NCBI GenBank assembly: GCA_963774955.1
Contig: CAVZGV010000004.1
Coordinates: forward strand, 296,716 to 360,715
Length of the DNA: 64,000 bases
Source: Candidatus Falkowbacteria bacterium
GTDB taxonomy: Bacteria > Patescibacteriota > Patescibacteriia > CAIXNZ01
Reading direction: 5' to 3'
Shown here piece by piece: positions 8,057 to 51,707 of the stretch (its first letter is position 1; each line of letters opens with the position of its first letter). Made by a program: the position numbers and the translations under genes. Under the pieces are notes generated by a model. The model made no database searches and was not told the DNA's origin. It saw only the letters and a list, made by a program, of their open reading frames with translations.

Positions 8057-8290
8057 ATGGCGCAAATATTTGTCACCATTGACCGTTTTGAGGGGGAAAA
8101 GGCTGTCATCATTTTAGATGATACTCAGACCTTGGTTGTAGCTAAAAAAGTTTTACCGCAAAATAGTAAAGAAGGCGATATTATAGAACTCAATTTTTCT
8201 GTTAGTCACTCACAAACAACGGCTGTCCGAAATTCCGCCGCAAAATTATTAAAAAAAATAATAAATCGCCAAGGCCATGAAAATACTTGA
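8057..8290 (+). CDS. DUF3006-like small protein
   Basis: MAQIFVTIDRFEGEKAVIILDD...LPQNSKEGDIIEL pattern. Its end overlaps the vanW-like start by 14 nt. Confidence 0.4.
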   Translation: MAQIFVTIDRFEGEKAVIILDDTQTLVVAKKVLPQNSKEGDIIELNFSVSHSQTTAVRNSAAKLLKKIINRQGHENT

Positions 8291-10223
8291 AATTTTAGGC
8301 ATTCAAAAAAAAGAGGAAAAACCCCAGAAAAGGTTAATGCTTGAGTTAACCGTTTTTTTTATTTTGCTGATCCTAATTATTTTGATCGCTACCCCGGTTA
8401 TTGCTTATGAAAAGTTATATAAGGATAAAATCTATTCCGGTGTTTATATTGACGGGATAAATATAGGTGGCCTGGAAAAAAATCAGGCCATTGATGAAGT
8501 AAACCGAAATTACGATAATATCAGAAATAACGGCTTGAGTTTTACTTTTAACAATCAAAATTTTAATCTGCCGATTACCGCTGTTTCACCGACTGATCCT
8601 GACTTGGCTTTTGAAGTTTTTCGCTTTAAGGTGGATGAAATGGTGGATAAGGCTTATTTGTATGGGCGGTCAGGTCGTTGGGATGAGAAATTTAGCCAGC
8701 AGTTGGTGGCCTTATTAAATGGGGCCGAGCTTCCTTTGGAGTATGATTTAAATAATGATGAGCTGATAAAATCCCTGATGGGGCGGTTCAGCCAATTTGA
8801 AAATCCTGCTCAGGATGCCAAAATTACCTTTGGTGATAATGGGGAAATTAAAATTTTACCGGATAATGACGGATTTGTCATCGATTACAACCAGGCAATT
8901 ACTGACTTGAAAAACAATTTTAATCTGATAGCTATTAACAGTATTCAATTGAAAACCAAGCCGGGCCTTGCCCAGGTGCGTAAGGCTGATGCTGAGAAAT
9001 TATTACCGAAGATTAAAGACATTATCGACAGGGAAAAGTTTGTTTTAAAATATCAGCCTTTAACCGACGATGATAAGATTTGGGAAATTAAAAACTCAGA
9101 ATACAGGAATTGGTTGGGTTTTGCCAAGGCCAATGATCAGATTAATGTTGTTTTTGAGGCAAATTTAATCAACGGTAAATTAGATGCTATCGCTCAGGAA
9201 ATCAATGTCGCGCCGCAAGATGCTAAGTTTCAGATGACCGACGGCAAGGTTACTGAGTTTAAGCCGGCTTTGCCGGGCTTGGAGCTTGATAAGGACGTAA
9301 GTTTGGTTCAGCTTAATCAGGGGTTTATTGCGGACAAAAAAACAGAAATCGAATTGGCAGTCAAGGAATCTGCACCAAATAATAAAACAGAAGATTCTAA
9401 TGACCTGGGTATCAAGGAATTAATCGGCAAAGGGGTTTCAGATTTTGCCGGCAGTCACACCAACAGAATTAAAAATATTAAAAATGCCGTCGAGCATCTG
9501 AATGGCTTGATTATTCCGCCGGGAGAATTTTCAACCGTTGACGCAATTGGTGAAGTTAATGCGGCTACTGGTTATTTTCAGGAATACGTGATTAAAGGTG
9601 ACCGGACCATACCCGAGTACGGTGGCGGTTTATGTCAGATAGGGACGACTATGTTTAGAGTAGCTTTATATAGCGGGTTACCAATTACAGAAAGAAGACC
9701 CCACTCATATATTGTTTCTTATTACAAACCAATCGGTATGGACTCGACAATTTATGGGCCGCATCCGGACTTGAAATTTTTAAATGATACTGGCCACAAC
9801 CTTTTATTACAGATAAAAATTGAAGGCACAGAATTAACTTTTGAATTTTGGGGCACTAGTGACGGTCGTAAAGTGGAAATCACTGATCCCGAGTTATATA
9901 ATTGGACCGGTATACCCGCTGACAGGCTGATTGAAAATCCGGCATTAAAGCCCGGTGAAAAGAAGAAAATGGAAACCGGACGTCGTGGCGCTGATTCCCA
10001 TTTTTATCGTTATTTGACCTTACCTAACGGTGAGAAAAAAGAAGAAATTTTCCGCAGTCATTATGTGGCCTGGCCAAATATTTATGAAGTCGGGATTACA
10101 CCCAAACCAGAAGAGCCGCCTGTAGAAACTGGTACTTCAGAGCCTAGTACTTCAGACAGTGCTTCTGCCGGCCAAAGCGGCACAGCCAATACAAATACCA
10201 ATACAAATACCAACTCTCAATAA
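8277..10223 (+). CDS. VanW-family protein (N-terminal TM, PG-binding-like region, VanW domain), low-complexity TN-repeat tail
   Basis: VanW core YGGGLCQIGTTMFRVALYSGLPITERRPHSY; C-terminal TNTNTNTNS. Confidence 0.75.
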   Translation: MKILEILGIQKKEEKPQKRLMLELTVFFILLILIILIATPVIAYEKLYKDKIYSGVYIDGINIGGLEKNQAIDEVNRNYDNIRNNGLSFTFNNQNFNLPITAVSPTDPDLAFEVFRFKVDEMVDKAYLYGRSGRWDEKFSQQLVALLNGAELPLEYDLNNDELIKSLMGRFSQFENPAQDAKITFGDNGEIKILPDNDGFVIDYNQAITDLKNNFNLIAINSIQLKTKPGLAQVRKADAEKLLPKIKDIIDREKFVLKYQPLTDDDKIWEIKNSEYRNWLGFAKANDQINVVFEANLINGKLDAIAQEINVAPQDAKFQMTDGKVTEFKPALPGLELDKDVSLVQLNQGFIADKKTEIELAVKESAPNNKTEDSNDLGIKELIGKGVSDFAGSHTNRIKNIKNAVEHLNGLIIPPGEFSTVDAIGEVNAATGYFQEYVIKGDRTIPEYGGGLCQIGTTMFRVALYSGLPITERRPHSYIVSYYKPIGMDSTIYGPHPDLKFLNDTGHNLLLQIKIEGTELTFEFWGTSDGRKVEITDPELYNWTGIPADRLIENPALKPGEKKKMETGRRGADSHFYRYLTLPNGEKKEEIFRSHYVAWPNIYEVGITPKPEEPPVETGTSEPSTSDSASAGQSGTANTNTNTNTNSQ

Positions 10224-10312: not shown

Positions 10313-11365
10313 GGGGTCCAAACTGGTTGGTGAATTAATGATTTTTGAAATGAATATACCAGCTAATGTAATTGTTTCTGTTATCTTTGCTTAATCCTGA
10401 ATGCTGGCGATACAATCTTTTTAAACGAGAAAAATATCCTTCAAGTTTATTCGTTGATTTGGCGATATTCGGATTATCTAAATAATGGAACATGTCGGGC
10501 AAGGCATGAATTACTAAGCTTCTAGTTCTTTGCAAATCACTAAAGACTTTGTGGTTACAGTCGAGTCTTGAAACCGCTTTGCCGAATTTTCTTTCCCACT
10601 TATGAAAATCTGAAATAAATTTATGTTTTTCCGGATAATTGTTAATGTTTGTTACCGCCAGTAATATCTTGCGTAATTGTATCGATGGCTCCAGTTTAGG
10701 ACGCATTCTTAACCAAGATAATCCCTGCCTCTGGATATGAACGATACAGCGCTGTATTACGATATTCGGCCATGCGTCCTTTAAGGCTCTAATTACGCTA
10801 GTATTACCGTCAATTGTAATGGCTGTAGGCTTGATTCCTTTATCTGACAGCTCCTTGAACAGCTCAAGGGCGGCAAAGTAATTTTCACGCCTTAAATACC
10901 TATTTGTGATGATTTGGCCATTGGCATTATTCATTGCCAGCATTAAGCAATTCATGCGGTGGAAATATGTACCATCAAAAAGCAGATATTTTATTCCGGT
11001 TTGTACGTTTAAAGGGCTCGGTAATTTTGCGAGCCAATAACTGATTATTCCCTTAATTGTTTTCCTGCTGTGGTGGCTAATTCCCGAAATTTGCCTGACT
11101 GAATATCCTTCGGCTATCCATAATTTAAACCATTTAAGTTGGCGGTTCAATTTATTCTTTGCATTGCGGAAAACAAACAGTCGATTGCACTTCCCGCACT
11201 TGAATCTTTGCCGTCCGCAATCATTTTGGCCATAAAAAATTACATTATTAGAGGAGCAATCTGGACAAGTTTTTTTTCATAATATTGAACCAGTTTAATA
11301 TTAAGTATCAATTTTAATCTAACCTTAACAGAAATTTTGTCTTTTCACCAACCAGTTTGGGTACC
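10313..11365 (-). mobile_element. IS1595-family (ISXO2-like) insertion sequence, about 1.05 kb
   Basis: Terminal inverted repeats: ccaaactggttggtgaa at 10318-10334 pairs with ttcaccaaccagtttgg at 11344-11360, a 17/17 match. They flank a single DDE transposase gene. Confidence 0.65.
10335..11150 (-). CDS. IS1595/ISXO2-like DDE transposase
   Basis: Motifs LFDGTYF, ITIDGNTSV, QRCIVHIQRQ and STNKLEGYFSRLKR match H...TNxxEgfwsxLKR. An in-frame upstream extension to about 11240 with no ATG encodes a Cys-rich zinc ribbon (DCGRQRFKCGKCNRLF), so the real N-terminus is probably upstream of the annotated M. Confidence 0.65.
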   Translation of the reverse strand: MNRQLKWFKLWIAEGYSVRQISGISHHSRKTIKGIISYWLAKLPSPLNVQTGIKYLLFDGTYFHRMNCLMLAMNNANGQIITNRYLRRENYFAALELFKELSDKGIKPTAITIDGNTSVIRALKDAWPNIVIQRCIVHIQRQGLSWLRMRPKLEPSIQLRKILLAVTNINNYPEKHKFISDFHKWERKFGKAVSRLDCNHKVFSDLQRTRSLVIHALPDMFHYLDNPNIAKSTNKLEGYFSRLKRLYRQHSGLSKDNRNNYISWYIHFKNH

Positions 11366-11470: not shown

Positions 11471-11779
11471 ATGGCCCACAATGTCAGTAAGACAATTCTT
11501 CATGAAGCCAAAAGCCCTCAGGAACTGCTGGAGTTCCTGGCCGAGCACGCTGCCCGGTATCAGGCGGAAACGGAAATCGAGCATCCCGCCTATCAACTGC
11601 AATTGCTGATTGAGTTTCATGAAAAAACCGGCTACTGGATCCTTTATTCCCAGCGGGTCTTGAAGCCAGACTTCGGCGGCCAGGTCTATCAGGAGCAGAC
11701 AAGGGAACACCTGTTCGCCGTCCACGAAGCTTCAGTCAAACGCGGCCAGGATATGGCCAAAGTTCCGGACACTCTCTAA
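11471..11779 (+). CDS. hypothetical protein (102 aa), GC-rich coding sequence
   Basis: SD CAAAGGAGGA; strong terminator 11798-11830 (gcccccg / cgggggc + T-run). Codon usage is GC-biased relative to the neighbours. Confidence 0.5.
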   Translation: MAHNVSKTILHEAKSPQELLEFLAEHAARYQAETEIEHPAYQLQLLIEFHEKTGYWILYSQRVLKPDFGGQVYQEQTREHLFAVHEASVKRGQDMAKVPDTL

Positions 11780-11831
11780 CCAGAATCACAAAAATCACAG
11801 CCCCCGGGTTTTTTCTCGGGGGCTTTTTTAT

Positions 11832-12602
11832 TTATTTTTTATACTCTTTCGACCCCAGCCACAAGCCTTCAAACATGGCTTTAAAGAAGTCATTGATTTC
11901 CTTGGACTGAATCAGGATGGCTGAGAGTTCATCCAGGGAGGAGATTATGGCGACTTTATCGTCAAAGATGATCATGACTGATTGGAAATGGCCTTGCATA
12001 ATTTCAGGCAAATAGCGGGGATTGCGGTCTTTGATTTCTTCGGGTGTCAGGCTGCGGCGGCCGGGGTTGTTTTCCCAAAGCGAGCGGGCCGTGATCTGGC
12101 GGGTTTGACGGGTTTGGATGAAATAGTCCGCGTATTTTTTATCAAATTCCGAAAAGAAATTTTTATTGGGCGCGATAATATCCCAGTGCCGGGATTTGCA
12201 ATATAAGGCCTGTTCCACCACCAGCTTAATGCCGCTGATGCCTTCATAATGTAAAACATTAGCCTGGCCTAATTGCCGGGCATTTTTGGGTTGCAGCAAG
12301 GGCAGGACCTGGTCCAGTTCTTTTTGCTGGTCCTGCAAGACCTGAATCTGGCTGGTAATCAGGCGTTTGATGTCTTTGGGCTCGGTCATGATAAAAGCCA
12401 GACGGTTGGCCGTGCCTTTATTGGCGACCAGGCCTTTGTGCATTAGAGTGTTTAAAGCGTGGTAAATAGTAGTGCGCTTAATACCCGTGATTTTTTCCAG
12501 TTCCTTGACCCCGATACTGGGAAAATCCAAGCCGGCCAAGTAAATCGTGGTTTCAGTGGCGGTTAAGCCAAGGCTTTTTAAGATAGTCGTTATTTGATCC
12601 AT
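11832..12602 (-). CDS. TrmB-family HTH transcriptional regulator (second paralog)
   Basis: N-terminal LGLTATETTIYLAGLDFPSIGVKELEKITGIKRTTIYHALNTLMHKGLV. Confidence 0.7.
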   Translation of the reverse strand: MDQITTILKSLGLTATETTIYLAGLDFPSIGVKELEKITGIKRTTIYHALNTLMHKGLVANKGTANRLAFIMTEPKDIKRLITSQIQVLQDQQKELDQVLPLLQPKNARQLGQANVLHYEGISGIKLVVEQALYCKSRHWDIIAPNKNFFSEFDKKYADYFIQTRQTRQITARSLWENNPGRRSLTPEEIKDRNPRYLPEIMQGHFQSVMIIFDDKVAIISSLDELSAILIQSKEINDFFKAMFEGLWLGSKEYKK

Positions 12603-12861
12603 ATACTTAAATTTAGCTCATATATTTATTTTTGTCAATGATATGTTGAAAATTAAAATTGCTAATTTTAGCATAAAATAATCTTTGTCATTCAATGGTT
12701 ATAAACACGTATTGTAAGCAGGTCAGGGATTTTATATATTTTAAGCAGTAAAACTGGAACCTTGACAATTCAACCCAATACGCCTATGCTTAGAAGAATA
12801 TTAAATTGTTTGAAGGCCCGCCTTCGCTCCTACGGAGCTTCGGCGGGCAAGGAGGAAATCA

Positions 12862-13739
12862 TGAAGAAAATCGACTTTCACGCCCATACTTCGGATCATA
12901 AGCTTTGGGGTCTGCACACGCAGACTGCCACGATTTCTGATTTGGTGAAACTGGCCGCCAAATACGATTTGCATAAAATCGTTTTGCTGGCCACATATTT
13001 TCCCTTCAAAGGCAGCGGTCTAAAAAATCAAGAATTGTTGGAACGTATTACTGGTAATCCGCTTTTCTGCATGTTCGGCAGTTTGGATGTTCAAAATAAT
13101 TTTGAACAGGGTTTGCAGGAATTGCGGGAACTGGCAGCGCAAGGGAAAATCTGCGGGCTTAAATTGTATCCTGGCTATCAGGTTTTTTCTCCATCTGACC
13201 CGAAAGTTTTTCCGGTCTATGAACTGGCCAGGGAGTTTGATTTGCCGGTCATGTTTCATGGCGGCGAACTGCATCATTGTTGCCAAAAGGAAGATCGGCA
13301 AAAAGGTCTTTTCCGTTGCGGCCAGGCTTGCAAGATTGATCAGTTGGGACATTTGTCTCAGCCGCAATCTTTTGAGGGCGCGATTAAAAATTTTCCGTCA
13401 GTCAATTTCATCATCAGCCATCTGGCTAATCCCTATTTTGATGACCTAAGGCGGTTGATGAACCTTTACCCTAATATCTTCACGGACATATCCGGCCAGT
13501 TTTTGTCAGGCACTGACGAAGCCAGTTCGGCTTATCAGCAAATGGTGGTCGGTGAAATTAATAAATTTCTGCAAGTGTCCAATGGCCCTGACAGGTTATT
13601 GTTCGGCACTGATTGGCCCATCCAATCATATGACGACTCAATCAGACTGATTGAGTCGCTTAACCTCAGTGCAGCGGACCAAAATAAAATTTATTTTGCC
13701 AATGCTGCCAAACTTCTTAAACAAGCCCTCCTTCGCTAA
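12862..13739 (+). CDS. amidohydrolase-2 / TIM-barrel metal-dependent hydrolase family protein
   Basis: MKKIDFHAHT start preceded by GGAGG. The six-frame ORF starts at 12762, but that upstream part translates a conserved hairpin repeat. Confidence 0.65.
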
Positions 13740-13768
13740 AGCTACGGAGGGCAAAGGGAGGATTAGTC

Positions 13769-14432
13769 ATGAACAAAAAAGTATTGGTCACAGCAGGCTC
13801 GACCAGGGTTAGGATTGATCAGGTTCGGGTAATTTCCAATATCTTTAAAGGCACAACCGGTACGCAAATCGCCGCTTACTTTCAGAGATCAGGGCGATAG
13901 CGTAACTTTAATCACTTCCAACCCCAAACTGGCGGCGACTTTAAAGGTCTCTAAAGTTGATGATTATCGCACCTTTGATGAACTGGCTGACCTGATGGAA
14001 TCTTATATCACTGAACGTGATTTTGATGTCATCATTCACTCAGCTGCAGTCAGTGATTACAAAGTTACCGGCCTCTTTACCCGTGAATTTCCTGAAGGGG
14101 AACTTATCAGCGTGGATAATTCCGCCAAAGTTTCTTCTGCTCATGAGGAGTTATTTCTCAAGCTGTCACCGACTTCCAAACTTATTGATCAGATCCGTCA
14201 GCCCTGGAATTTTCAGGGCGTGCTGGTCAAATTCAAACTGCAGGTCGGCATGACCGACTGGAATCTGATTGATCTGGCCAGAGATAGCCTGCACTATTCC
14301 CATGCCGATCTTATCGTGGCCAATTGCCTGGAATGGGCTCGGGAATATGCTTATATCCTGGATAAAAAAAACAACGTCAAACAAGTAGACCGCGCTGATT
14401 TGGCGGCTGAGCTGTACAGGAGGACCAGATGA
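13769..14432 (+). pseudogene. coaB: phosphopantothenate-cysteine ligase CoaB (DFP domain), interrupted by a +1 frameshift near 13895
   Basis: Frame 1 reads MNKKVLVTAGSTRVRIDQVRVISNIFKGTTGTQIAAYFQRSGR* and stops at 13898-13900. Frame 2 continues DSVTLITSNPKLAAT...DVIIHSAAVSDYKV. CoaB homology is continuous across the two frames. Confidence 0.6.
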
Positions 14433-16183
14433 AAATTTTGCTGGGTGTAACATCTAGCGTGGCTGCCAAGCTGACTCCCAAACTGGTTAAGCTTTTGCTT
14501 AAACAGGGCCATATGGTTCAGGTGGTGGCCACGGAAAAATCTTTGTATTTCTGGCAACAGGAACAGCTGGAAATTCCGGTGGTGACTGAAGCTGATGAAT
14601 GGCCGGGTACTCAGTATGATCAGGACGCTCCCATTGCTCACATTGCTTTGCGGGAATGGGCTGATTTGATGCTGATTGCTCCGCTGACTGCCAATACTCT
14701 GGCCAAAATGGCCAATGGTCTGTGTGACAATTTGCTGTCCAGTATTGTCCGCTCCTGGGATCCACAAAAACCAGTCGTGATCGCGCCGGCCATGAACACT
14801 AAAATGTGGGAGCATCCGCTGACAGCTGAACAGCTGAAAAAGCTGGGTGAGTGGTATCCGCTTTCCGTTGTCCAGCCGATTGCTAAAAAATTAGCTTGCG
14901 GTGATTACGGACTTGGCGCCATGGCTGATTTGGACACGATCGTTCAGACAGTACAGGACGTCATCAATTCACTAAAGCAAAAAAAACAAGAACCCAAGAG
15001 CCCCAAAAAAATCACGGTCATCGGCGGTCCCATCAGCCAGGCCATTGATCCGGTGCTGAACCTTGTGCCGAGTGGCAGAGGTGAGCTGGCACATAAGATT
15101 GCCCTGGAATTTGAGCGACAATTTACTGATGTTGATCGCCTGGGTAATTTTGAGCAGAGCAAAAAGTGCGACTACGTTGATCTGGAGCAGGAAGTCATTA
15201 ATCTCAAGAGCGACGTGGTAATTTTCCTGCCCCATATTGCCAATGTCCTGGTGGACAAGCAGGCGACCAAGATTCGGGTGGCTGAAGGCGAGGAATCTGG
15301 TATCAAAGTTATCAGCGCGCCCAAGCTGGTCAATCTGGTCAAACAGTTTCATCCTGAAGTTCTGCTGGTTCCGTTCAAACTTGCAGAACAGGATATGGGC
15401 AAGGCGAAAATCGTTAAATGGATGTTGGAAGCCCATGCGGCTCTGGCGGTTTATTCCCGGCTGGGCAATTCCAAGTCATTCTGGATCATTGATGCTCTGG
15501 GAAATGAAACGCCCGTGGCCAAAGCTGATTTACCGGTTGAACTGGTTGCTCAGGTCCAAAAATATCTGCAGGCCATCAGACGCCGCAGTGTAAAAAAAGG
15601 CGAAGCCGTGCCACCGGTACCGCATCTTGAGGACTGGGTGAATTTTTCCCGGCAGATGCAGCCGGCTTTTAGCCAGATCATGGAACGAAATGTGGCTACT
15701 GGTCGCTGGCCAGGAAATTTTTCTTTCCGTTGCACGCACGGCTTTATGTCTGAACGTTGCGAGCAGGGCTTTGTCATCACCAAACGCAACGTGGCCAAAA
15801 GCGGTTTACAGCCTGATGACTTTGTCTTGGTCAATTTGGAACTGGAAGACGAGCAATTGTCTTATCAGGCTAAAGGCGAAGCCAAGCCCAGCATTGACGC
15901 GCCGATTCACCGTTTGATTTACGAAAAATTAAGTTGGGTCAAAAGCATTGTCCATGGCCATTTGCACATTGTTCTACCTCCGGAAGCTGATGTCATGCTC
16001 GAACAATGGCCTTGCGGTGCGGAAAACGAAGCCATCGAGCTTCTGGAAATCGCGCCACAGGAAAAAAGTCCTTTGTGGGTAGTTAATGTTACCGGCCACG
16101 GTTTCATTGCCCTCATCGGTGATGAAGATCCGTCTGCTTCTTTGGAGGAGCTAAGCCGGCTTGATTACAAAGTTACCTATTAA
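14429..16183 (+). CDS. fusion protein: phosphopantothenoylcysteine decarboxylase flavoprotein (CoaC) + CoaB-like domain + class II aldolase/adducin-like domain
   Basis: N-terminal flavoprotein (LLGVTSSVAAKL...PAMNTKMWEHP). Middle VIGGPISQAIDPVLNLVPSGRGELAHKIA matches the CoaB signature. C-terminal ITKRNVAKSGLQPDDFVLVNLE...KPSIDAPIHRLIY is aldolase class II-like. Confidence 0.65.
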   Translation: MKILLGVTSSVAAKLTPKLVKLLLKQGHMVQVVATEKSLYFWQQEQLEIPVVTEADEWPGTQYDQDAPIAHIALREWADLMLIAPLTANTLAKMANGLCDNLLSSIVRSWDPQKPVVIAPAMNTKMWEHPLTAEQLKKLGEWYPLSVVQPIAKKLACGDYGLGAMADLDTIVQTVQDVINSLKQKKQEPKSPKKITVIGGPISQAIDPVLNLVPSGRGELAHKIALEFERQFTDVDRLGNFEQSKKCDYVDLEQEVINLKSDVVIFLPHIANVLVDKQATKIRVAEGEESGIKVISAPKLVNLVKQFHPEVLLVPFKLAEQDMGKAKIVKWMLEAHAALAVYSRLGNSKSFWIIDALGNETPVAKADLPVELVAQVQKYLQAIRRRSVKKGEAVPPVPHLEDWVNFSRQMQPAFSQIMERNVATGRWPGNFSFRCTHGFMSERCEQGFVITKRNVAKSGLQPDDFVLVNLELEDEQLSYQAKGEAKPSIDAPIHRLIYEKLSWVKSIVHGHLHIVLPPEADVMLEQWPCGAENEAIELLEIAPQEKSPLWVVNVTGHGFIALIGDEDPSASLEELSRLDYKVTY

Positions 16184-16188
16184 CAACA

Positions 16189-16218
16189 AAGCCGTTCCGC
16201 GTTGCGGAACGGCTTTTT
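16189..16218 (+). terminator. rho-independent terminator
   Basis: gccgttccgc gtt gcggaacggc followed by ttttt. Confidence 0.6.
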
Positions 16219-16339
16219 AAAATTGCCGAAAACGGCAACGTTTACATAAAGTAGAGACGAGGTTAACCGCGTCTCTACCGTCCATTTACATAAAATACAG
16301 CCGTTTTCGTGGTTCCGGTCGGTTTTTTTACGCTAACTA

Positions 16340-16369
16340 TTGACAAAAAGTTTTAAATGTGCTATTATA
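16340..16369 (+). promoter_or_regulatory. consensus sigma70 promoter (TTGACA-18-TATTAT), promoter module copy 1
   Basis: ctaactattgacaaaaagt...gctattat; a near-identical copy is at 16791-16819. Confidence 0.55.
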
Positions 16370-16427
16370 TAGATACAAAAATAAGCGTCTGAACTTTTAA
16401 CTGCAACCTTTTCAAAGGAGGATACAT

Positions 16428-16697
16428 ATGTATACTCAGAGCAACTCGCAGACTTACGAACCCCCGACCATGCCCGGCAACTGGGAGCCGGAGGACCTCG
16501 CGCTGATGGATGCCGAGGAAGCTTCCTTTCCCTGCGATGAAGACGAAGCAGAATATGAAGAGGAAGAGCGTCAGGCCTTGGAGCGGCAGCGCCTGGAGGC
16601 CATCTACCAGGAGGATATCCTGGAGGCCTTCGCAGACCGCGATTGGCAGCATCAGTTGAGTGTGGCGTTTCTCGCCTCCCTCGACCCAGCGTACTAA
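16428..16697 (+). CDS. highly acidic small hypothetical protein (89 aa), GC-rich
   Basis: SD CAAAGGAGGA; D/E-rich; terminator 16711-16745. Confidence 0.5.
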   Translation: MYTQSNSQTYEPPTMPGNWEPEDLALMDAEEASFPCDEDEAEYEEEERQALERQRLEAIYQEDILEAFADRDWQHQLSVAFLASLDPAY

Positions 16698-16790
16698 AAA
16701 AATACCCTCACACCCCGGGAGACTTTTATCCCGGGTTTTTTATTTGTAAGCCATTTTCAGCGTTTATTTGAGGTTATTTCCCCCTAACTA

Positions 16791-16819
16791 TTGACAAAAA
16801 GTGAAATATATGCTATTAT
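16791..16819 (+). promoter_or_regulatory. consensus sigma70 promoter, promoter module copy 2
   Basis: ctaactattgacaaaaagt-N9-tgctattat, identical core to copy 1. Confidence 0.55.
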
Positions 16820-16876
16820 GTAATGATGTGTCTTTTTTAGGATTGATTGTTTTTACCACTATAACCAAGGAGGAAT

Positions 16877-17617
16877 GTGATGTCGAGTACTGAGGATAAT
16901 GGTGTTAAAGTGGAAACTACGGACAATGTTCATCATCATTTCGAAGATCCGCTGGGAGTTTTCGACGGCTATGGCGAATACGACGATCGTTATTTTGATG
17001 AAGAAGAAGACTGGTGCGATGAGGAGGATCGTCCACGGGAAGAAGATTCTATGGGGATTTTCGCCGGCTACGGCGAATTCGACGATCATTACTTTGCCGA
17101 GCCGCCCATGTGCAAATGGGAAGACGGCGACGATTTCCGTGACGAATGGCTGTACGGCGACGACTTTCCCACCCCGGCCAGATTTGCGGGCCTTGAAGTT
17201 CCTCCTCCCAAAACACGGTGTACCATCAACTTTGCGGAGGAGATAAAGACATCGCGAAATCGCCTTTGGCGAAAGCGTTGCCTCGGCAAGAATCCGAGGT
17301 ACAAATGCAAGCGCCAGGGCAAGCGGTTTTCCACCATCCTGCATGCTCATGTTGAGCTGACTCGGGAGGAGTGGTTCCTCTATGACCAGATGAACGCGCA
17401 GGAGCAGTCCTTCAGGGATCGAATGGAGGACGAGAATGAGAGCTTCGACGAGGACATGAGGAGTCTCAACCAAGATCTGGCCACCATTCAGCAGATGATA
17501 GCTGAAATGTGGGCAGACCGTATTCCCCGCTGGTTGATCGAGCTCCAGACCGAAATCGAGATCAAGATGTACGAGCGTCAACAGGAGTTCAATGAGCGGT
17601 ACCAAATGGCCGCCTAA
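16877..17617 (+). CDS. acidic hypothetical protein (246 aa) with an internal duplicated GxFxGYGE(Y/F)DDxYF motif, basic Cys-containing middle and coiled-coil C-terminus
   Basis: SD CCAAGGAGGA; GC-rich codon usage; terminator 17632-17665 (cccccggg / ccggggg). Confidence 0.55.
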   Translation: MMSSTEDNGVKVETTDNVHHHFEDPLGVFDGYGEYDDRYFDEEEDWCDEEDRPREEDSMGIFAGYGEFDDHYFAEPPMCKWEDGDDFRDEWLYGDDFPTPARFAGLEVPPPKTRCTINFAEEIKTSRNRLWRKRCLGKNPRYKCKRQGKRFSTILHAHVELTREEWFLYDQMNAQEQSFRDRMEDENESFDEDMRSLNQDLATIQQMIAEMWADRIPRWLIELQTEIEIKMYERQQEFNERYQMAA

Positions 17618-18316
17618 AAGCAACAACCTAACACCCCCGGGACTTTTACCGGGGGATTTTTTTATACAAAAAAACACCCCGTCAAACGAAGTGTCTTCAT
17701 CTATGCCGCTACGCGGCACTTTCCAAAATCTGCAGACAAGAATATCTGAAGAAGGAATAATCTAGCCGGAGCCGGATTGAAACCTTTTTCGGACACCCAT
17801 GCTTATCGTGCCTGCAGATTTTGAAAAACAATTTGATTAAATTGCTTCCCCAAAGTCGCCCAAAATGATGGTCATGCTGTTTTCAGGGGGAATAGAAACA
17901 GCTCTAACCGCCAATTGGACGATACTTAAACTTATCATAATACGGAAAACTTGTCAAGAGAATGACAAGTTTTCTATGTTTTTGGCTTATTTTAGAGGAA
18001 TTTTGTTTATTATTCTATTATCTGGAATTATGTTGTTTTTAAGCTAAATCTTGAATAAATCTGCCAGTCGGCTTCTTACTTTTTATAACTAAAAAGTAAG
18101 CAAAAAGTTTTGGGGGTGCTCAATGCGCTAGTGCATATGGTTAGTACGTGGTTTTGATAATGACGCTTAGTTCGCACCCCCAAACCCCCGGGGAGGGGTG
18201 AAAAACGTTTTGAGTAATAAGTTTAAGATTACTTTATGATTTTGTCTACCAGCCCATATTTAACTGCCTCTTTCCACCTTCGCTCCTGCTGGAGCTTCGG
18301 TGGATTTCGGTTTACA

Positions 18317-28493: not shown

Positions 28494-28769
28494 ATGACTC
28501 TCAAATCCGCGCATTTTTCTCAAAAACTGACAATCACCTTGTTAGTTTTTTTATTTATCTTTTCCCAGCCTGGCATTTTGCTGGCGGCCGAAGAAGCTGT
28601 AAATGACAATACCGTTTCGGTTAACACGACCGAATCCCCGGCCGAACCGGCCACTGACACTTCAGCTCAGCCGGCTGTAACTCCTGAAACACCGACAGCC
28701 CAGACGGTTCAGATCAGGCTACGGCTGATGCGGTCAAAGCTGACACGGAAACGCCAGATCAAGGCATGA
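28494..28769 (+). CDS. signal-peptide-bearing N-terminal segment, probably the true N-terminus of the giant RHS protein separated by a frameshift
   Basis: Signal peptide MTLKSAHFSQKLTITLLVFLFIFSQPGILLAAEE plus a PT-rich linker. The last 20 residues (RLRLMRSKLTRKRQIKA) look out of frame. The giant ORF frame upstream of its ATG reads linker-like sequence (DGSDQATADAVKADTETPDQG). Confidence 0.4.
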   Translation: MTLKSAHFSQKLTITLLVFLFIFSQPGILLAAEEAVNDNTVSVNTTESPAEPATDTSAQPAVTPETPTAQTVQIRLRLMRSKLTRKRQIKA

Positions 28770-31700
28770 ATACTTTAGACAGTTCCGGAGGAGAGGTGTA
28801 CGGAGACGTCTCCAATATTACTGATTCGCCCAAAACCAATAAATCAAATTTGGAAGTTGATCAGAACTCTGGTGCCTTATTATATAAATACCCGATACAA
28901 GTTCCTCCGGGCAGAAACGGCCTGCAACCTGACTTGGCTTTGAGTTACAATAGTCAGGATTTAAAATACGACAGTGAATTCGGTTATGGCTGGGGTATAA
29001 CTATTCCATACATTGAAAGGTTGCTTAAAAAAGGTATTGATAAGGCGTATACTGAAAATTATTTTACATCGTCTTTGAGCGGAGAATTGGAAGATGTTAG
29101 TTTGAGCGATGGGCATCACGGCACTTATGGCGCTAAAGTTGATAGCGGAGATTTTCTTAAATACGAGTTTAATACCAGTAACTATTGGTTGGTAACCGAT
29201 AAAAAGGGGACTGTGTACAAATTTGGATACAATGCTTCAGCTCGCCAGAATGATCCTAGTGACAGCTCACATGTGTTTAAATGGATGTTGGAGGAAGTCC
29301 GCGATACCAATAATAATTACATTAAATATGAGTATTATAAAGATAATGGTCAGATTTATCCCTCGGCGATAAAATATACCGGCTATAATACGACTGACGG
29401 AATTTTCGAAATAGATTTTTTAAGAGAAAGCCGGAGCAATGACTACGTTTCTTATAAAGAGGGTTTTGAAGCAACAACTGGTTATAGGATTTATGAAATC
29501 CAGGCCAAAGTTAGTGGGACATGGGCTAGAAAATATGAGCTGGACTATACGGCATCAAGTGAAAATGATTGGCAGGAATTATTAACTTCTATAACTGAAA
29601 GTGGCAATGACGGTAGTCAGACAATCAGTTTACCAGTTACTACGTTTACTTACCAAACGAATGGAGGATACGTTTTTTATACTCAGGATCAGAATGTTGA
29701 TTTTCCAACTAAAGCATATAATGCGATGTGGAACGGTCATGCCAGCAACGGCACTTTTTCAACTGATGCAAATGGCGACGGCCTATCCGATATTGTCCAA
29801 TATAAAGTAGGTTATACAAACTGCCAATATTCTTTAAGCAGAAGTTTTTTAAGTAACGGGAACGGTTGGGATGAATCAAGTGAATGGACTTCATTTAATT
29901 TAGCTAAAGAACAATATTGCCATAGTAATGGAGATTTTAGCGTATATTTAAGACCTGCGATTTTTATCGATATAAACGGAGATGGTTTATCTGATTTTGT
30001 GAAAAGTGGAATTAGATTAAATAACTCTGCTAATCAAGACTATGTAAGTATCAGCTGGAATATTCCCTTATCATTAACCGATGCCAATGGCTATGGAATT
30101 CAAGACTACGTTCATCTTGGAGATTTTAACGGCGACGGACTAGTTGATTATTTTGCTAAATATTACATAAATGGAAATTGGCATATGGATATTATGCCCA
30201 ATTTAGGTAATGGCTGGTATGTTGATAATACTTGGAGTTTCCCAAGTTATCTGAGCGATGGCATAATTTATAATCACGGCATTAAATTCGCGGATATTAA
30301 CGGTGATAGCCTGGACGATATATTGGTATCGCAGAATGATGACCAATACGGGACAATAAGAAAAGTATATTTAAACACCGGTGCCAAAAGTTGGGCGGAA
30401 ACAACTGATTTTACAATTTCTAGCAGCCTTGTTTTTTTTATCAGGCATACAAATCCCGATCAAAATATGGTTATGCCTATAGAATTTAATGATCTAAACA
30501 AGGACGGTTTAACTGATGTTATTTATGACGAGAGTGTTTATATAAATGACGGTTCGACCTTTATTGATACTACTGATATTACCTCTTTTTATAGCCCTTA
30601 TTTTGGTCAAATCTCCGGCCGAAATTTCATGGAAATAAACGGAGATGGTATGCCCGATTATTCCATATCCTCCAAGTCAGGCATTGATGAATCATATTGG
30701 GTCGGTTCCCAATATGAAAATTCAGAAGATTTAAGTAGTATTTCTAAATCGGTGTATATTAATCAAAAAAAGCCTTCGGGATTATTGATAGGTGTTGAAA
30801 ATTCCAAAGGCGGGTCAATGGAAGTTACTTACAAAGGTTCGGGTGAATACAAAGGTAGTAATGATAATTTACTAAATCCGCATTTGCCGGTGATTGTCCA
30901 GACCGTCTCCCAGATCACCTACAATGACGGCCTAAATAATTCATGGTCGGAAAATTACCAGTACGCCAACGGTGAATACTATTTTTCTGACTACCTGAAT
31001 CGCAAGCTGGCGGGATTTGGTTTGGTGACAAAGACTGATGCGGGAGGGAATGTTACGAAGTCATATTTTCATCAGGGGAATACTACTGACTCAAGTCATG
31101 GCGAATATTCTGATGATGTTTCCAAGATCGGCAAGGTTTATCGCGCAGAAGTTTATGATGACTCGGATAACTTATATTCAAAGTCCATTAATAAATGGGA
31201 AAATTATGATTTGGGGAATGACAGGGATTTTGTGAAGTTAACGCAAACGATTAGTTTTAGTTATGACGGTAATACAAGTCATAAGGACAAGGCTGAAACT
31301 TACACTTATGACAATGCGACCGGCAATTTGACGCAGAAAGTTACCTGGGGCGAGGTGACGGGTTCGGATAACGGCACGTACACGGACACCGGAACGGATA
31401 AATTTACGACTGATATAGACTATGCGGCCACTACGGGTAGCGCAGTCATTGGCTTGCCAAGCCAGGAGACGACTGAAGATCAAAGCAGTAATAAAGTTAA
31501 GGAAACCAAGTATTATTATGACAGTCTGACTTTGGGCAATGTGGATAAAGGCAATCTGACCAAACAGGAAATGTGGAAATCAGGCACCAGTTATATTGAT
31601 GTTGAAAAGACATATAATTCTTACGGCATAGTTACCCAGGAAAAGGATCCGCGCGATAAGACAACGGATTATACTTATGATTCATATAATTTGTATCCGG

Positions 31701-34700
31701 CGACTGTTACTAATGCGTTAGACCTGGATACTGATTATGAATATGATTATTCTTCAGGCAAGCCGACCCAGGTGACTGATCCTAATGGGCGGGTGTTTCA
31801 GACAGTTTATGATGCCCTGGACAGGGTAAAACAGGAAAAACAGCCGGATTTAACCACGCCGAGTACTTTGGTGGTTAAAACTGAATATACATACACTGAT
31901 AATACCGTACCGAGCAAAGTTCAGCAGACAAATAATCTGGATTCTTCAACGAGTTTTGATATTTATACTTATCTTGACGGTTTTGGACGAAAAATTCAGG
32001 AAAGAAAAGAGGCCGAGGCTTCAAATACATTTAGTGTCAAAGATTTTGCTTACAATGACCTTGGCCTGGTGGACAGGGAATCTTTGCCGTACTTTTCGAC
32101 CGGCACATCCAGAACAACCGCCACCACTGATAATTCGCTTTATACCAGTTACACTTATGATCCTTTGCAAAGAGTCGCCACCTCAACTAATGCAGTTGGC
32201 ACCACCACGAATACTTATGACGACTGGAAACTGACCATTACTGACGCGGAAAGCAATGTTAAGGATTTGTACAAAGATGCTTATGATAATTTAGTCCAGG
32301 TTGATGAACATAATGACTCAAGTACCTATACCACGACTTACGGGTATAATGGTCTGGGAAATTTATTAAATATTACTGATTCTCAGGATAATGTCAGGAA
32401 TTTTACTTATGACGGACTTGGCCGCAGATTAACAGCCGAGGATTTGCATGATCCTGAAGACGAATATTTTGGCGAGTGGACGTATGGTTATGATGATTCA
32501 GGTAATTTAACTTCCAGAACTGACCCCAATTCCCAGACAGTAAACTGGACTTATGATGATTTGAACCGCGTTTTGACTGAGGATTACACGGGTCAAAGCG
32601 GAACCGAAGTGGCTTATGTTTATGACACTGGAACGGACGGAATTGGCAGGCTTTATACGGCCACAACACCTGACGTGGTTACGACTCATACTTACAATCC
32701 GCTGGGCGGAGTGAAAACTGAAAATAAATACATTGATTCAACCAATTATCTGACCGAGTTTGCTTATGACCGCCAGGGAAACCAGACCTTGATTACTTAT
32801 CCGAGCGAAGATGAAGTTAAATACGAATACAACACGGCCGGGCTTTTGGAAAAGATTCAAAATAAACCAGCCGGTGAACAGTCTTTTACAGACCTGGTCA
32901 GCGATTATGATTATTCGCCTTTGGAGCAGGTAACTTATCAGGAAGACGCCAATGGCGTTAAAACCTTTAATACTTATGACGAGCAAAAATTGTACCGCCT
33001 AAAAGAGAAAATCACAGCCAGTCCGGATGAAGGTGATTATGGTGAAGGGATGTTTAATATGGCAATGGCTGTCCCGAGCGCAGGTGTCATTCAGAGCGGT
33101 AGCGAAGAATCCATTGCCCCCGCCACAACCGGAATCCTTTCAGCGCTCGGCGTTACTGCGGATTCGCCGTTGACGAGCGCAGGTGTCATTCAGAGCGATA
33201 GCGTGGAATCCATTGCCCCCGCCACAACCGGAATCCTTTCAGCGCTCGGCGTTACTGCGGATTCTCCCTTAACCCCGCTCATAAACAGTGTAACCATGGC
33301 TACGGAAAGTTTAGGTCTGGTTAAGGATCCTCAAATAGAACCGTTACCGGTTAAGCCTGGGGAAAAAGTCCAGCGGGATTTCCTCGGCCGGCCGGTTGAT
33401 TATTCCAATTATCCCAAAGATACCACGGTTTACATTAAAACAGATCCAAACGCCAAATCTCAGGAATTGCCTAAAGAAGCGATTGAAGCCTATGATAAAG
33501 CGGCTGCCAAGCCTCAACCCGAGCCTGAATTAAAGACTTTATTGCCCCAGGAGGCTGTTGATTATTACAACAGTCAGGCTCAAACATCACCAGGCGACGG
33601 CTCCATGATGCTTTTGGAAAGCGTTAATCCACCTAATCCGTCAACGAATTTACAAACTGAAAATTTATGGAAAAGCGACAATATAATCTACAATTCCGGT
33701 TTTGAAGACGGATTTGCATACTGGCAGTGGCAAAATAAGCAGGGCGATACGCATACGGAAGATTGCACAGTTTCCTACAGCGGTTCCTGTTCGGAAAAAG
33801 TTACCATTGCCACTTCAGGTAATTTTTGGGAAACCCAAGTTTACCAGGTTTTAAGGCTGGATGAGAATATTAATTACAAACTGCGTTTTAAGGCCAAAGC
33901 TTCAACAGCCATCACATTTAGCCTGGAAGCCGTGCAAAACCACACGCCATTCAATGACCTGGGCTTGTGGAAAGGGGATTTAAGCATTGGCACTGACTGG
34001 CAGGAATACGAATATACTTTTACTGCTTTGGCAAGCGATCAGGACGCCAGAGTAACCTTTTATCTGGGCGCCAATGCGGCAGATTACTGGTTTGACGATA
34101 TTGAACTCATACCCGATGCTCTCAATATGCTGAAAAATACCAGTTTTGAAAACAATCTTGATAATTGGGAATTTTATGATTACAACAGCACCAGCGAAAA
34201 TACCCGAGACTGCGCAGAAGCGTCTGACGGCGACTGCAATAACAAGGTGGAAAATATGCAGAGCGGTGAATGGTGGCAGGTTTCCCTTAACCAGCCGATT
34301 TCAGTGGTGGCTGACCAGACCTATATTCTGACGTTTTACGCTCATTCCAATTACGATACTCGAATAGCCAAGGTGGCAATCGCCAAGAATTACAGTCCCT
34401 GGACTGATTTGACCGCCATTGCCGAATTTCACACCAACTGGAACGGCGGTTTTGCCAAATACCAGATTGAGCTGACCCCGAACGCCACTGAAAGCAACGC
34501 CCGCCTGATCTTTTATCTGGGCGATGATCAGGGCTGGATTAAGCTGGACAGTCTGCGCTTATGGCCTCAGCAGGCGACTAAGGTTTCAGATTCAACCCCT
34601 GAATTCTCCGCGATTTATGATGATCCGGATTCCGGGGATTATGCAACAGATTACCAGATACAATTAATCAAATATGATGGGAACTGGTCGAACCCCATCT

Positions 34701-36789: not shown

Positions 36790-38605
36790 CCAATTACAAT
36801 TAATCAAATATGACGGGGCGTGGTCGAACCCTGTTTGGGACTCTGGCAAAACAAGTTTTACAAGTTCAGTTTTAGAAGGCGATAGGACGGAGGATATTGC
36901 GTATGACGGCGATGCATTGCCTTTGGACGGCATGAGGTACAATTGGAGGATTAAGCTGTGGGACGAATCTGATAATGAGGGCGAGTGGACCAATGGCGAA
37001 GATTTTTTCATCATGCAGGGCAAGAGAATTCAGGATTTGAGTTATACTTACGATGACGTAGGGAATATAATGCGAATAGATGACCAATCGGAGACAAATA
37101 CCAGGAAAACCGCTGAATACGAATATGACGAATTATATCGCTTAACCAGCGCCACAATTACCGATTCCGCCACTGAAGAAGATTACACGCAGACTTATAC
37201 GTATGACAGCTTGGGCAACTTTACTAATCGTTCCGATGTCGGTGATTATGAGTATGAGGGCAATCAGGGAACCAACTATGCCAATCCGCATGCGGTTACC
37301 AGCGTACAGAATGATGCAGTGGTCATAAACTATGACCATAATGGCAATCTGTTGTCAGAAATTATTTCTGGGTATAACTGGACAATATTTGAAGCCGGGT
37401 GGGATTATAATAACCGGATGATAACAAGCGGAGGTTGGTCAGCAGAAACCTTGTACCGCTATGATCACAGCGGGCAGAGGATTCTAAAGGATACCGGCGA
37501 TGAATATAGCGGCATTACGTCCATTTATGCTAATCAGTACTACAACGAGCGGACAAATAAGGAAACATCGGAATTGACCAAGACATTGAATGTGTATGAC
37601 AACAAAGGTAATTTAGTCGCCACCGCAGAAGAAGCCGGTGAGACAAATAATCTTTACTATGTGAATGGTGATCATTTGGGAAGTTCCAGCGTGATGACGA
37701 CTGACGAGGGTGAGCAAGAGCAGGTGGTTGATTATTTCCCGTTTGGGAATATGCGGTTTAATGAGCAGAGGATACAAAATGAAAGCTATGATCAGAAGGA
37801 AAAATTTTCCGGAAAAATTTTCGATCAGGATGCCGCGGGGTTAAGTTACTTTGGGGCGAGATACTATTCGGGGGAGGCCGGGAAGTTCATTAGTCAGGAC
37901 CCTGTATTTTTAGCAGTTGGGGATGGTGAAGGTTATAAGAAATTGACTAATTTTAAATTTGAACTTTATCTTTCCAATCCCCAATTACAAAATTCCTATG
38001 CGTATGCAGCTGATAATCCTTTAAAATTTATTGATACAAAAGGCAATATTGCTGAAACAGTCTGGGATGCCGGATGTGTAGCATTTGACATTGGTAGCTA
38101 CTTCCATAATGAGTTGAAAGCTGTTGGTGCTTTATTCCGAGGCGATCTTAGTGGCGCGGTCAATCATACAAACGAAGCAATGGGCTTTCTGTTAAATCTC
38201 GGAGTAGATACTGGGTCTGCTATGATCCCTTTTGTTCCCGCTGGGTTATCGCATGTTGATGATGCGGCTAAAGCGACATCATTAGTTAGACAGAACTGGG
38301 CTAAGGGTATGCAGTTTGAGAATAAAGTCTTGAATTTATTGGGAGAATCTAAAAACACTCAAAAGATTTCTACTCAATTTGGTAATGTGATACCTGATAT
38401 TTATAATAAGGCAGGAAATATTATTGGTGAGATAAAAAATACTGCGTATGCATCCCTAACAAATCAATTTAAGGGTATTTTAGAAATGGTAGAAAAAGGG
38501 AAATCCCAATTTACATTATATGTAAATCAAAATACTAAAATTTCTGGGCCGTTACAAAAAGCGATAGATACCATTAAAGGAACAGTACAAAGAATAACTC
38601 ATTGA
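36790..38605 (+). CDS. orphan RHS-core cassette with alternative C-terminal toxin (PD-(D/E)xK nuclease-like); longest ATG-ORF is 36917..38605
   Basis: About 90% identical to the giant gene's 3' region from the junction caattaatcaaatatgacgggg onward. The tail diverges after NPLKFIDTKGN, with IPDIY...GEIK suggesting a REase fold. Confidence 0.65.
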
Positions 38606-49145: not shown

Positions 49146-49544
49146 ATGCATGATTATCAAAGCTTATCTCATTCAAAATGGGACTGCAAATATCATTTGG
49201 TTTTTATTCCCCAGGGTCGGCGAAAAATACTTTTCGGCAAAATAAGAAAGTACTTGGGTAATATTTTCCACGAACTGGCAAAGTATAAAAGTTGCACAAT
49301 TTTAGAAGGACATTTTATGTTGGATCATGTTCATATGTGCATTCAGATACCGCCCAAATTTTCCGTGGCTTCAATCGTGGGCTATCTCAAGGGTAAAAGC
49401 GCCATCATGATCGCCAGGCAGTTTGGCGGCAAAGAAAGAAATTTTAACGGCGAACATTTTTGGGCGCGCGGTTATGCTGTTTCAACCGTGGGATTTGAAG
49501 TTAATCGGATTAGGCAATATATTAGGGAGCAGGATTTGCATTAA
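49146..49544 (+). CDS. tnpA: IS200/IS605-family TnpA (Y1 transposase)
   Basis: YHLVFIPQGRRKIL, HVHMCIQIPPK (HuH) and GYAVSTVG (catalytic Y); 132 aa. Confidence 0.8.
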   Translation: MHDYQSLSHSKWDCKYHLVFIPQGRRKILFGKIRKYLGNIFHELAKYKSCTILEGHFMLDHVHMCIQIPPKFSVASIVGYLKGKSAIMIARQFGGKERNFNGEHFWARGYAVSTVGFEVNRIRQYIREQDLH

Positions 49545-50247: not shown

Positions 50248-50409
50248 ATGAAACCGGAAATAAACAAGACGAATAAGAAACCCATGGCCTGGATCATGCG
50301 CGTTCGTGACGAAGTCGTGGCGCAGGTGCCCCTGGGAGTGGCTCGCCACTACCAGAAGATCGGTACGGCGATGATCATCGCCTTTTGCGTCAACGGCAAG
50401 ATCCACTAA
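50248..50409 (+). CDS. small GC-rich ORF (53 aa)
   Basis: SD AAAGGAGAAAAG. MKPEINKTNKKPMAWIMRVRDEVVAQVPLGVARHYQKIGTAMIIAFCVNGKIH. Confidence 0.3.
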   Translation: MKPEINKTNKKPMAWIMRVRDEVVAQVPLGVARHYQKIGTAMIIAFCVNGKIH

Positions 50410-51413: not shown

Positions 51414-51414
51414 C

Positions 51415-51672: not shown

Positions 51673-51707
51673 TTAATAAAAAACAATAATCCCCAGCCAA
51701 GGAGAAA

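Follow-up and report, generated by a model that had tools for sequence, protein, structure and literature searches.

What does a protein do in which an enzyme of coenzyme A (CoA) biosynthesis is joined to an aldolase-like domain, and is such a protein real? The question is raised by a stretch of 64,000 nucleotides from a Candidatus Falkowbacteria bacterium (contig CAVZGV010000004.1 of assembly GCA_963774955.1), referred to here as the window. An open reading frame (ORF) of 584 amino acids at 14429..16183 on the plus strand, with an ATG start codon, had been described from its sequence alone as a CoaC flavoprotein followed by a CoaB-like middle domain and a class II aldolase/adducin-like domain, next to a separate coaB gene. 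Here, we report that the ORF is a genuine fusion of a functional-looking CoaC to an autonomous protein. It is best filed as a fusion of the CoaC-CoaB type that contains a neofunctionalised CoaB paralogue, and it opens onto a large uncharacterised family of phage proteins. We refer to the two-domain unit of the CoaB-like and the aldolase-like domain, about 395 amino acids in length, as X.

CoaC fused to an autonomous protein

Pfam placed the family Flavoprotein (PF02441) at residues 1-178 of the ORF (E 2.6e-36, profile positions 1-161 of 162) and Aldolase_II (PF00596) at residues 413-512 (E 3.9e-12, above the gathering score), the latter match spanning only the first half of its profile (positions 6-92 of 183). 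The middle part (residues ~190-400) matched no Pfam family, including DFP (PF04127), so that two of the three families anticipated in the preliminary description were found and the third was not. The NCBIfam model coaBC_dfp (TIGR00521) aligned with residues 1-323 at 171.9 bits, under its cutoff of 219.7. An AlphaFold model of residues 192-584, built from 45 homologues, had a pLDDT of 88 and a pTM of 0.85, and the full-length model contained three folded domains (pLDDT 81.5) with a pTM of 0.61, which leaves the relative orientation of the domains uncertain. Taken together, the Pfam matches, the NCBIfam alignment and the AlphaFold models agree with the three-domain layout as first described, and the C-terminal part has the class II aldolase/AraD fold.

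In the CoaC domain, H71 (in AHIAL), APAMNTKMW and the LACGDYGLGAM clamp align column by column with canonical CoaBC proteins. After the work of Kupke and Steinbacher, these motifs reportedly represent the active-site His, PxMNxxMW and the Cys clamp ACGDxGxG. The domain scored under the NCBIfam equivalog cutoffs (132.7 versus 261.4 bits for TIGR02113, and 147.3 versus 219.7 for TIGR00521); divergence below model cutoffs is usual for proteins of the Candidate Phyla Radiation (CPR). Judged by its motifs, the CoaC domain looks like a working phosphopantothenoylcysteine (PPC) decarboxylase. Outside the gene cluster described below, the nearest relatives of the window CoaC are proteins of ~355-400 amino acids in which CoaC carries a C-terminal extension with a weak Peptidase_M23 signal. 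These proteins (L098, 5207-7071; L099, 5239-7068) adjoin a DFP/coaB gene, in operons that also encode an AAA_33 P-loop kinase, an NMT1-type binding protein, VWA and OmpA proteins and an ABC transporter.

A homologue search covering 5.8 billion proteins found all three domains in three proteins: the window's own, P0002 (87% identity) and P0003 (50% identity). P0002 comes from a different sample and assembly, and P0003 lies on two contigs from different runs. A further ~45 proteins of ~395 amino acids cover X only, at 49-58% identity. The CoaB-like and aldolase-like domains thus make up a free-standing family, and the protein is not a Dfp with an added aldolase tail, as had been proposed. On the homologues collected, we take X to be a free-standing family first and the CoaC fusion to be a secondary, rare event.

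Could the ORF be two genes, coaC and X, that were joined by a sequencing or assembly error, as the preliminary description had allowed? In unfused CPR clusters (e.g. L005), coaC and X are separate and overlap by 4 nucleotides, so a small indel would be enough to fuse them, and the adjacent coaB in the window does carry a one-nucleotide indel. An error of this kind is nevertheless effectively refuted by the presence of the same fusion in the 87%-identical protein from another assembly and in the 50%-identical protein on two contigs, and by a Lys-rich linker of ~15 residues after the last CoaC helix. Because the two fused lineages are not sisters in a neighbour-joining tree (without support values), in which P0003 pairs with the unfused P0013, the CoaC-X fusion probably arose twice. 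When compared with L009 (GCA_026395755.1), a syntenic relative of 87% identity, the ratio of nonsynonymous to synonymous substitution rates (dN/dS) was 0.09 for the CoaC domain and 0.12 for X, with 0.03-0.12 for the flanking genes clpP, DHH, rbfA and rpoB.

The combination had been called one not known before, and indeed our literature searches gave no description of a CoaC/CoaB-like/aldolase-fold combination. Searches on CoA biosynthesis in CPR/Patescibacteria and on PPC synthetase (PPCS) and PPC decarboxylase (PPCDC) of phages gave nothing relevant. In public annotation, X proteins are given only as 'class II aldolase/adducin family protein'.

The CoaB-like and aldolase-like domains of X

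Profile-profile alignment matched the middle domain to CoaB domains with a probability of 97.9%, and the domain has the Rossmann-like fold of CoaB/PPCS. In this and in a direct alignment, its motifs are altered: DPVR of CoaB is DPVL (Leu210, also the family consensus), I(S/G)N is LVP (invariant Pro214 at the position of the Asn), SSGKMG is (S/T)G(K/R)G, AAVAD is PH(I/L)(A/P)N (invariant Asn272 at the position of the Asp), and KIKK is KIR. The replacement of Arg, Asn and Asp by Leu, Pro and Asn is found in all or nearly all of the 45 homologues. In CoaB, the Arg of DPVR is critical for the conversion of phosphopantothenoyl-CMP with cysteine, the Asn of I(S/G)N is in the active site (N211 in M. 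smegmatis), the Asp of AAVAD (D281) coordinates a cation with the CTP triphosphate, and the KxKK flap from the opposing protomer binds the triphosphate and completes the active site (PMC7794376). Since the Arg, Asn and Asp are missing, the middle domain falls outside PPCS on three defining residues, in line with the suspicion in the preliminary description that it is not a working PPC synthetase.

As judged from the alignments, the middle domain is a CoaB paralogue in which the fold, the glycine-rich loop and the leading Lys of the flap are retained (K-I-K-K corresponds to K281-I-R283, with an invariant K281 and a nearly invariant R283) and the Arg, Asn and Asp of PPC synthesis are lost. To call it degenerate, as was done before, is misleading: it has invariant polar residues of its own (Q204, D207, H269, N272, K281, K299, K305 and K317), and, with a dN/dS of about 0.12 for X, the middle domain is under purifying selection. 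The window protein resembles bifunctional CoaBC (Dfp) in that an N-terminal CoaC with canonical motifs is followed by a CoaB fold, and in its alignment with coaBC_dfp. It differs from CoaBC in the three lost residues, in having only K-I-R of KxKK, in its score under the equivalog cutoff, in the appended class II aldolase-fold domain of ~200 amino acids, and in having a separate canonical-type coaB upstream.

In the C-terminal domain, KPSIDAPIHR...IVHGHL aligns with KPSSDTPTHR...IVHTHS of AraD. D490, H509 and H511 align with the acidic and His ligands D76, H95 and H97 of AraD, and H557 in the GHG motif was assigned by motif position. Together they make up a complete, putative Asp/His3 metal site. 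None of the four varies within X, nor do the positions aligned with them vary in the phage family described below. The putative phosphate site, consisting of G429-N430 (the GN loop), T451 and P487-S488, is likewise invariant in X, and the residues of both sites are conserved in the phage family. X has in addition the invariant motifs RRRS, RWPGNFSFRC (FRCxxGF) and WPCGAENE, which have no counterpart in characterised members. A set of invariant Arg and Lys residues (R384, R385, R426, R434, R453, K457 and R495) suggests an anionic, phosphate-rich, possibly nucleotide-linked ligand.

The sequence nearest to the C-terminal domain is that of L-ribulose-5-phosphate 4-epimerase, and the scores against the NCBIfam models of AraD, FucA and MtnB were 18-31 bits, for cutoffs of 137-389. 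In known members, the catalytic acid/base is D120'/Y229' in AraD and E73/Y113' in FucA. In X, the region after HGH is rearranged (WPCGAENE), and the stretch 'APYATF' of FucA appears deleted when set against the E. coli FucA sequence. On this comparison, the domain is a metal-site-competent member of the superfamily and not a recognisable orthologue of an aldolase, epimerase or dehydratase. The earlier label of an aldolase-like domain holds for the fold, the metal site and the phosphate site; aldolase activity is not indicated, the scores of the domain falling well short of all models of characterised aldolases, epimerases and dehydratases. X shares with AraD and FucA the motifs KPS(S/I)D..H and (V)H.H, with the Asp as in AraD, together with the GN loop and the final GHG histidine. 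It differs from them in the half-length PF00596 match, the low scores and the extra invariant motifs, and in that its aldolase-fold domain is always preceded by a CoaB-like domain.

Occurrence and proposed role of X

X proteins are found in Patescibacteria, Anaerolineae and Omnitrophota; among 185,579 species genomes, seven had X, at 10 loci. The CPR hosts of the X operon are Parcubacteria, Falkowbacteria and Moraniibacteriota, plus metagenome contigs. The order coaB-coaC-X, mostly with 4-nucleotide overlaps, occurs in nine distinct clusters (the window, L005, L007, L009, L018/L105, L019, L101, L102 and L103). The CPR operon is laid out as TrmB / amidohydrolase / coaB / coaC / X, with X as the last, translationally coupled gene and the TrmB gene divergent to the operon or, in some CPR clusters, downstream. 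Solo X in Anaerolineales adjoins integrases, transposition genes or a DNA methylase, and the Omnitrophota solo locus has a TrmB gene. Anaerolineales UBA6055 has three X paralogues in one genome. Directly before two of the three lies a gene for a DUF7508-domain protein (L003, 7246-7956; L014, 9042-9941), which together with X may form a two-gene mobile module.

When 1.84 billion cluster representatives were searched exhaustively with the X profile, only about two full-length bacterial X clusters emerged, along with 523 representatives (E < 1e-10) of ~355 amino acids that match profile positions ~108-380. The latter belong to a sister family of more than 500 clusters at 50% identity, encoded by large phages, a group that the preliminary description, made from the window alone, could not have seen. 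The sister family aligns with X over the whole length (hhalign, E 2e-63) and has the motifs GNASFRC, KPSVDTPIQ, HGHVY, PCGAxEE and NLxGHG in common with it. Its genes occur in Prevotella Lak megaphages, in LR756500, on a contig that also encodes terminase, GIY-YIG endonuclease and ligase (L021), and on 76 IMG/VR contigs, many of 100-600 kb; the phage contigs span 8.7-608 kb. A Foldseek search of BFVD gave no match at E < 0.001, and PHROGs gave only a marginal match to a family of unknown function. The phage homologues have no conserved neighbour, the best neighbour cluster being present in 11 of 74 loci. The neighbour types, mostly assigned by eye from sequence with a few confirmed by Pfam, are CCA-adding enzyme, RNA ligases, Nudix, NadE, HD, metallophosphoesterase, CYTH and ADP-ribosylglycohydrolase. 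One phage contig (L030/L113) has an X homologue and a coaB+coaC pair, and its CoaB is 43-51% identical to the CoaBs of the CPR clusters.

Several features of the phage proteins and contigs deserve mention in their own right. P0175 (592 amino acids, from a Logan contig) is a homologue of the phage branch with a C-terminal domain of the inositol-monophosphatase/CysQ family (PF00459, E 6.7e-39), a fusion that hints at a phosphorylated sugar or nucleotide as substrate. Eleven IMG/VR phage contigs (38-459 kb; loci L113-L123) carry a coaB+coaC pair of the CPR-operon subtype. In five of the eleven (L114, L116, L117, L120 and L121), a TANGO2/NRDE-family gene (PF05742, E 1e-22) lies just upstream of coaB, which it directly adjoins in L117 (9271-9996) and L120. 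TANGO2 is reported to bind acyl-CoA and to be a possible Cys-Ntn hydrolase, and vitamin B5 is effective in TANGO2 deficiency (PMC11867700, PMC13044924, bioRxiv 10.1101/2022.11.04.514597). The phage TANGO2-coaB-coaC modules would be an independent genomic link of TANGO2 to CoA biosynthesis.

Canonical CoaB and CoaC together convert 4'-phosphopantothenate and cysteine to 4'-phosphopantetheine. A coupling of X to this branch is suggested because X has been fused to CoaC repeatedly, keeps a fixed order with overlapping stops and starts, and has an N-terminal domain derived from CoaB. Our best guess, put forward tentatively, is that X serves the 4'-phosphopantetheine branch as an active, metal-dependent accessory enzyme and is not a sugar aldolase of central metabolism. 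X would act on a phosphorylated pantothenate-derived or nucleotide-linked substrate of that branch, with the aldolase-fold domain binding the phosphate and chelating the alpha-hydroxy-carbonyl. From the chemical structures, we take the spacing between the phosphate and the chelating oxygen in the phosphopantoyl group to be that of L-ribulose 5-phosphate, so that an AraD-like pocket could plausibly accept a ligand derived from pantothenate. The pseudo-CoaB domain would supply nucleotide or substrate binding and dock onto the CoaB/CoaC assembly, and the step of X would lie either before CoaB (supplying phosphopantothenate) or after CoaC (e.g. nucleotidyl transfer onto 4'-phosphopantetheine). Speculatively, the 3-fold CoaC, 2-fold CoaB-like and 4-fold aldolase-like modules could together form a cage. 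We considered X as an analogue of pantothenate kinase, as an analogue of phosphopantothenate synthetase and as a PPAT-like cytidylyl- or adenylyltransferase, and the evidence favours none of them.

Several observations weigh against a role of X in CoA biosynthesis. About half of the X loci have no coaB or coaC nearby: solo X occurs in Anaerolineales, in Omnitrophota and on two CPR-like contigs, and the solo-X host phyla presumably have complete CoA pathways. In L124, the amidohydrolase gene precedes coaB-coaC and X is absent, which indicates that the basal CPR operon lacks X, that X is a 3' add-on, and that it is dispensable for CoaB and CoaC. The phage sister family has neither the DPV loop nor the Lys flap of the CoaB-like domain, and its recurring neighbours are genes of RNA repair, Nudix, NAD and ADP-ribose, not CoA genes. 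The coaB in the window is itself frameshifted. The loss of the nucleoside triphosphate (NTP) flap in the phage branch, together with the solo copies in hosts with standard genomes, argues against a simple replacement of a core step.

X may instead have nothing to do with CoA chemistry, being a phage or mobile enzyme that acts on a nucleotide or sugar-phosphate (e.g. ADP-ribose-like or pentulose-phosphate), has a role in nucleotide metabolism or counter-defence, and travels with coaB-coaC as cargo of the same mobile pool. We regard this as unlikely, yet it is kept alive by the solo copies, by the dispensability of X in L124-type operons and by the lost NTP-binding elements of the phage branch. 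It agrees with the sheer number of phage clusters, on contigs many of which exceed 100 kb and which include Lak megaphages, with the integrases, transposition genes or DNA methylase beside solo X, and with the deviant GC content of the window island, which adjoins a transposase. The phage neighbours such as CCA-adding enzyme, RNA ligases, Nudix, NadE, CYTH and ADP-ribosylglycohydrolase, the homologue fused to an inositol-monophosphatase-family domain, and the closeness of the C-terminal domain to L-ribulose-5-phosphate 4-epimerase point the same way. It is opposed, however, by two apparently independent in-frame fusions to CoaC, by the constant position and translational coupling in nine clusters, and by an N-terminal domain that itself derives from a CoA-pathway enzyme; PADLOC gave no match for X, and the scores of the AraD, FucA and MtnB models are far under their cutoffs.

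A quite improbable alternative is that X is a non-catalytic partner, in which the pseudo-CoaB domain heterodimerises with the stand-alone CoaB or scaffolds a CoaB/CoaC metabolon, and the aldolase-fold domain serves as a ligand sensor or an oligomerisation module. Such a partner would fit the loss of the PPCS Arg, Asn and Asp with retention of a dimer-forming fold and the flap, and X, where joined to CoaC, reproduces the domain order of canonical CoaC-CoaB. In yeast, PPCDC is a heterotrimer of Cab3, Hal3 and Vhs3. The flap of the opposing protomer completes the CoaB active site, and the CoA pathway forms metabolons (PMC7794376); PPCS of Plasmodium falciparum is heteromeric (PMC12985681). The Plasmodium enzyme is similar in that a paralogue of a CoA enzyme stands beside a second canonical copy, and it hints that X may dock onto or partner another enzyme. 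It differs from X in that X has an extra metal-site domain and also occurs without a neighbouring CoaB. The latter point speaks against a mere partner, as do the deletion of the flap in the phage branch and the conservation of the metal site, the phosphate site and the charged residues across the bacterial and phage branches, which would be unusual in a scaffold.

The biosynthesis of CoA is seen as a closed pathway of five steps, and the cofactor supply of CPR bacteria is poorly understood. As an accessory enzyme fused or coupled to CoaC/CoaB, X would be an unrecognised activity of the CoA pathway, and it could be a route around a missing CoA step in CPR bacteria. It is possible, if somewhat doubtful, that X and the phage sister family constitute an unrecognised enzyme family, spread by phages and mobile elements, that combines a repurposed PPC-synthetase fold with an AraD-like metal domain and catalyses a novel reaction on a phosphopantetheine-/CoA-type or related nucleotide-linked metabolite. 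If so, examples would be a non-canonical step of the CoA pathway in CPR or a means by which phages manipulate the CoA or nucleotide pools of the host. A function for X would annotate a sizeable block of jumbo-phage proteins, including those of the Lak megaphages.

The operon, its island and other features of the window

Table 1. Positions of the fusion protein's domains and of the surrounding features in the window.
Feature	Position	Strand	Basis
Higher-GC island (GC 0.45-0.53 versus ~0.37-0.41 in flanks): regulator, operon, two small acidic ORFs	11471..17719		Composition profile, per-ORF GC
TrmB-family transcriptional regulator, divergent from operon	11832..12602	-	Pfam PF01978, E 2.2e-9
Amidohydro_2 (PF04909), metal-dependent TIM-barrel hydrolase/decarboxylase-like, first operon gene	12858..13739	+	Pfam, E 6.1e-30
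Stand-alone streptococcal-type coaB (phosphopantothenate-cysteine ligase), +1 frameshift	13769..14432	+	NCBIfam NF005231/TIGR02114, translations, DNA alignment
CoaC domain (PPC decarboxylase, HFCD flavoprotein), residues 1-178	14429..14962	+	PF02441 over full profile; motif alignment
CoaB/PPCS-fold domain, residues ~190-381, without PPCS catalytic Arg, Asn, Asp	14996..15571	+
Class II aldolase-fold (AraD-like) domain, residues ~385-584	15581..16180	+
13-bp GC-rich hairpin directly after stop codon	16188..16216		Terminator-like scan, consensus match only

The separate, frameshifted coaB with its 4-nucleotide overlap was present as the preliminary description had it (Table 1). From its ATG, coaB runs to a stop near 13898 (..QRSGR*) and then continues in the frame of ORF 13995..14432, which shares 4 nucleotides (ATGA) with the start of the 584-residue ORF. 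DNA alignment with L009, in which coaB is intact (221 amino acids), traced the lesion to one surplus A at 13888, outside any homopolymer run. The CoaB motifs are of the DxVR, ISN and AAVSDY type (IDQVRVISN and AAVSDY), and the reading frame is broken. Because coaB with the surplus base removed has a dN/dS of 0.21 against L009, the lesion is either recent or an assembly error. Like the separate coaB and coaC of streptococci, the window coaB and the free-standing CPR coaC genes best match TIGR02114/NF005231 and TIGR02113, respectively, over the full length. They differ in that the CPR scores are all under the equivalog cutoffs, and in that the CPR genes share their operon with an Amidohydro_2 gene, X and a TrmB regulator; the CPR-operon CoaB subtype is also present in large phages.

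A regulator homologous to that of the window flanks the cluster in L005, L007, L009, L018 and L102, and a more distant one is found in L002, L019 and L103. The mechanical ORF of the amidohydrolase begins at 12762, and the length of its relatives fits the ATG at 12858. The protein, a member of a large CPR family, weakly resembles gamma-resorcylate and LigW decarboxylases in PDB and is encoded in five of the nine distinct coaB-coaC-X clusters. We considered it as a pantolactone hydrolase, for which the support consists of weak lactonase/decarboxylase similarities only. An ADP-ribosylglycohydrolase gene lies directly upstream of amidohydrolase-coaB-coaC on the CPR contig L124 (5043-5894) and ~5.5 kb upstream of coaB-coaC on the phage contig L030 (9901-10887), which also has an X homologue; this may be a coincidence or a recurring association. 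The hairpin after the X stop codon likely marks the end of the operon. Motif scans for CoaD (GxFDPxTxGH), the CoaE P-loop and CoaX found none in the window, which carries little weight, as the window covers 64 kb and the contig at least 455 kb.

The same higher-GC island is present in L009 at the same site, between a VanW-like gene and clpP, and the operon was probably acquired horizontally. Beside the island, at 10335-11150, lies a Mutator-family transposase (PF00872, E 3.8e-8), between an ORF of 648 amino acids at 8277-10223 (VanW-like by synteny with L009) and the TrmB gene; L009 has no such transposase at this position. Within the island, two acidic ORFs at 16428-16697 (89 amino acids) and 16877-17617 (246 amino acids) each have a near-consensus promoter-like site and a terminator-like hairpin. 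Neither matched a Pfam family, and the longer one had no match in NCBIfam. The latter is kept in L009 (56% identity, dN/dS 0.37), and an overlapping ORF of 286 amino acids on the opposite strand (16859-17719) is probably spurious. PADLOC had no match for X, the amidohydrolase or the 246-residue ORF, and only a generic helix-turn-helix match for TrmB; a reading of the locus as a defence system was rejected on these grounds. No riboswitch or other known RNA was found at 10-19 kb of the window with E-values up to 1.

Two other regions of the window stand out. At 50300-53300, about 3 kb have a GC content of 0.50-0.64 (flanks ~0.35), a skew of A over T and only implausible ORFs, and no Rfam match was obtained there, not even at the E-value threshold. 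This region lies just downstream of an ORF at 49146-49544 that looks by eye like an IS200-type transposase, and it may represent inserted foreign DNA or a large non-coding element. The ORFs at 36917-38605 and 44526-46220 are paralogues of ~563 amino acids with near-identical N-termini (MPLDGM(R/K)YNWRIKLWDES.NEG.WTNGEDFFIM). They lie downstream of an ORF of 2562 amino acids (28766-36454), interspersed with small ORFs of low GC content (0.27-0.33), in what looks like a variable surface or cell-envelope locus.

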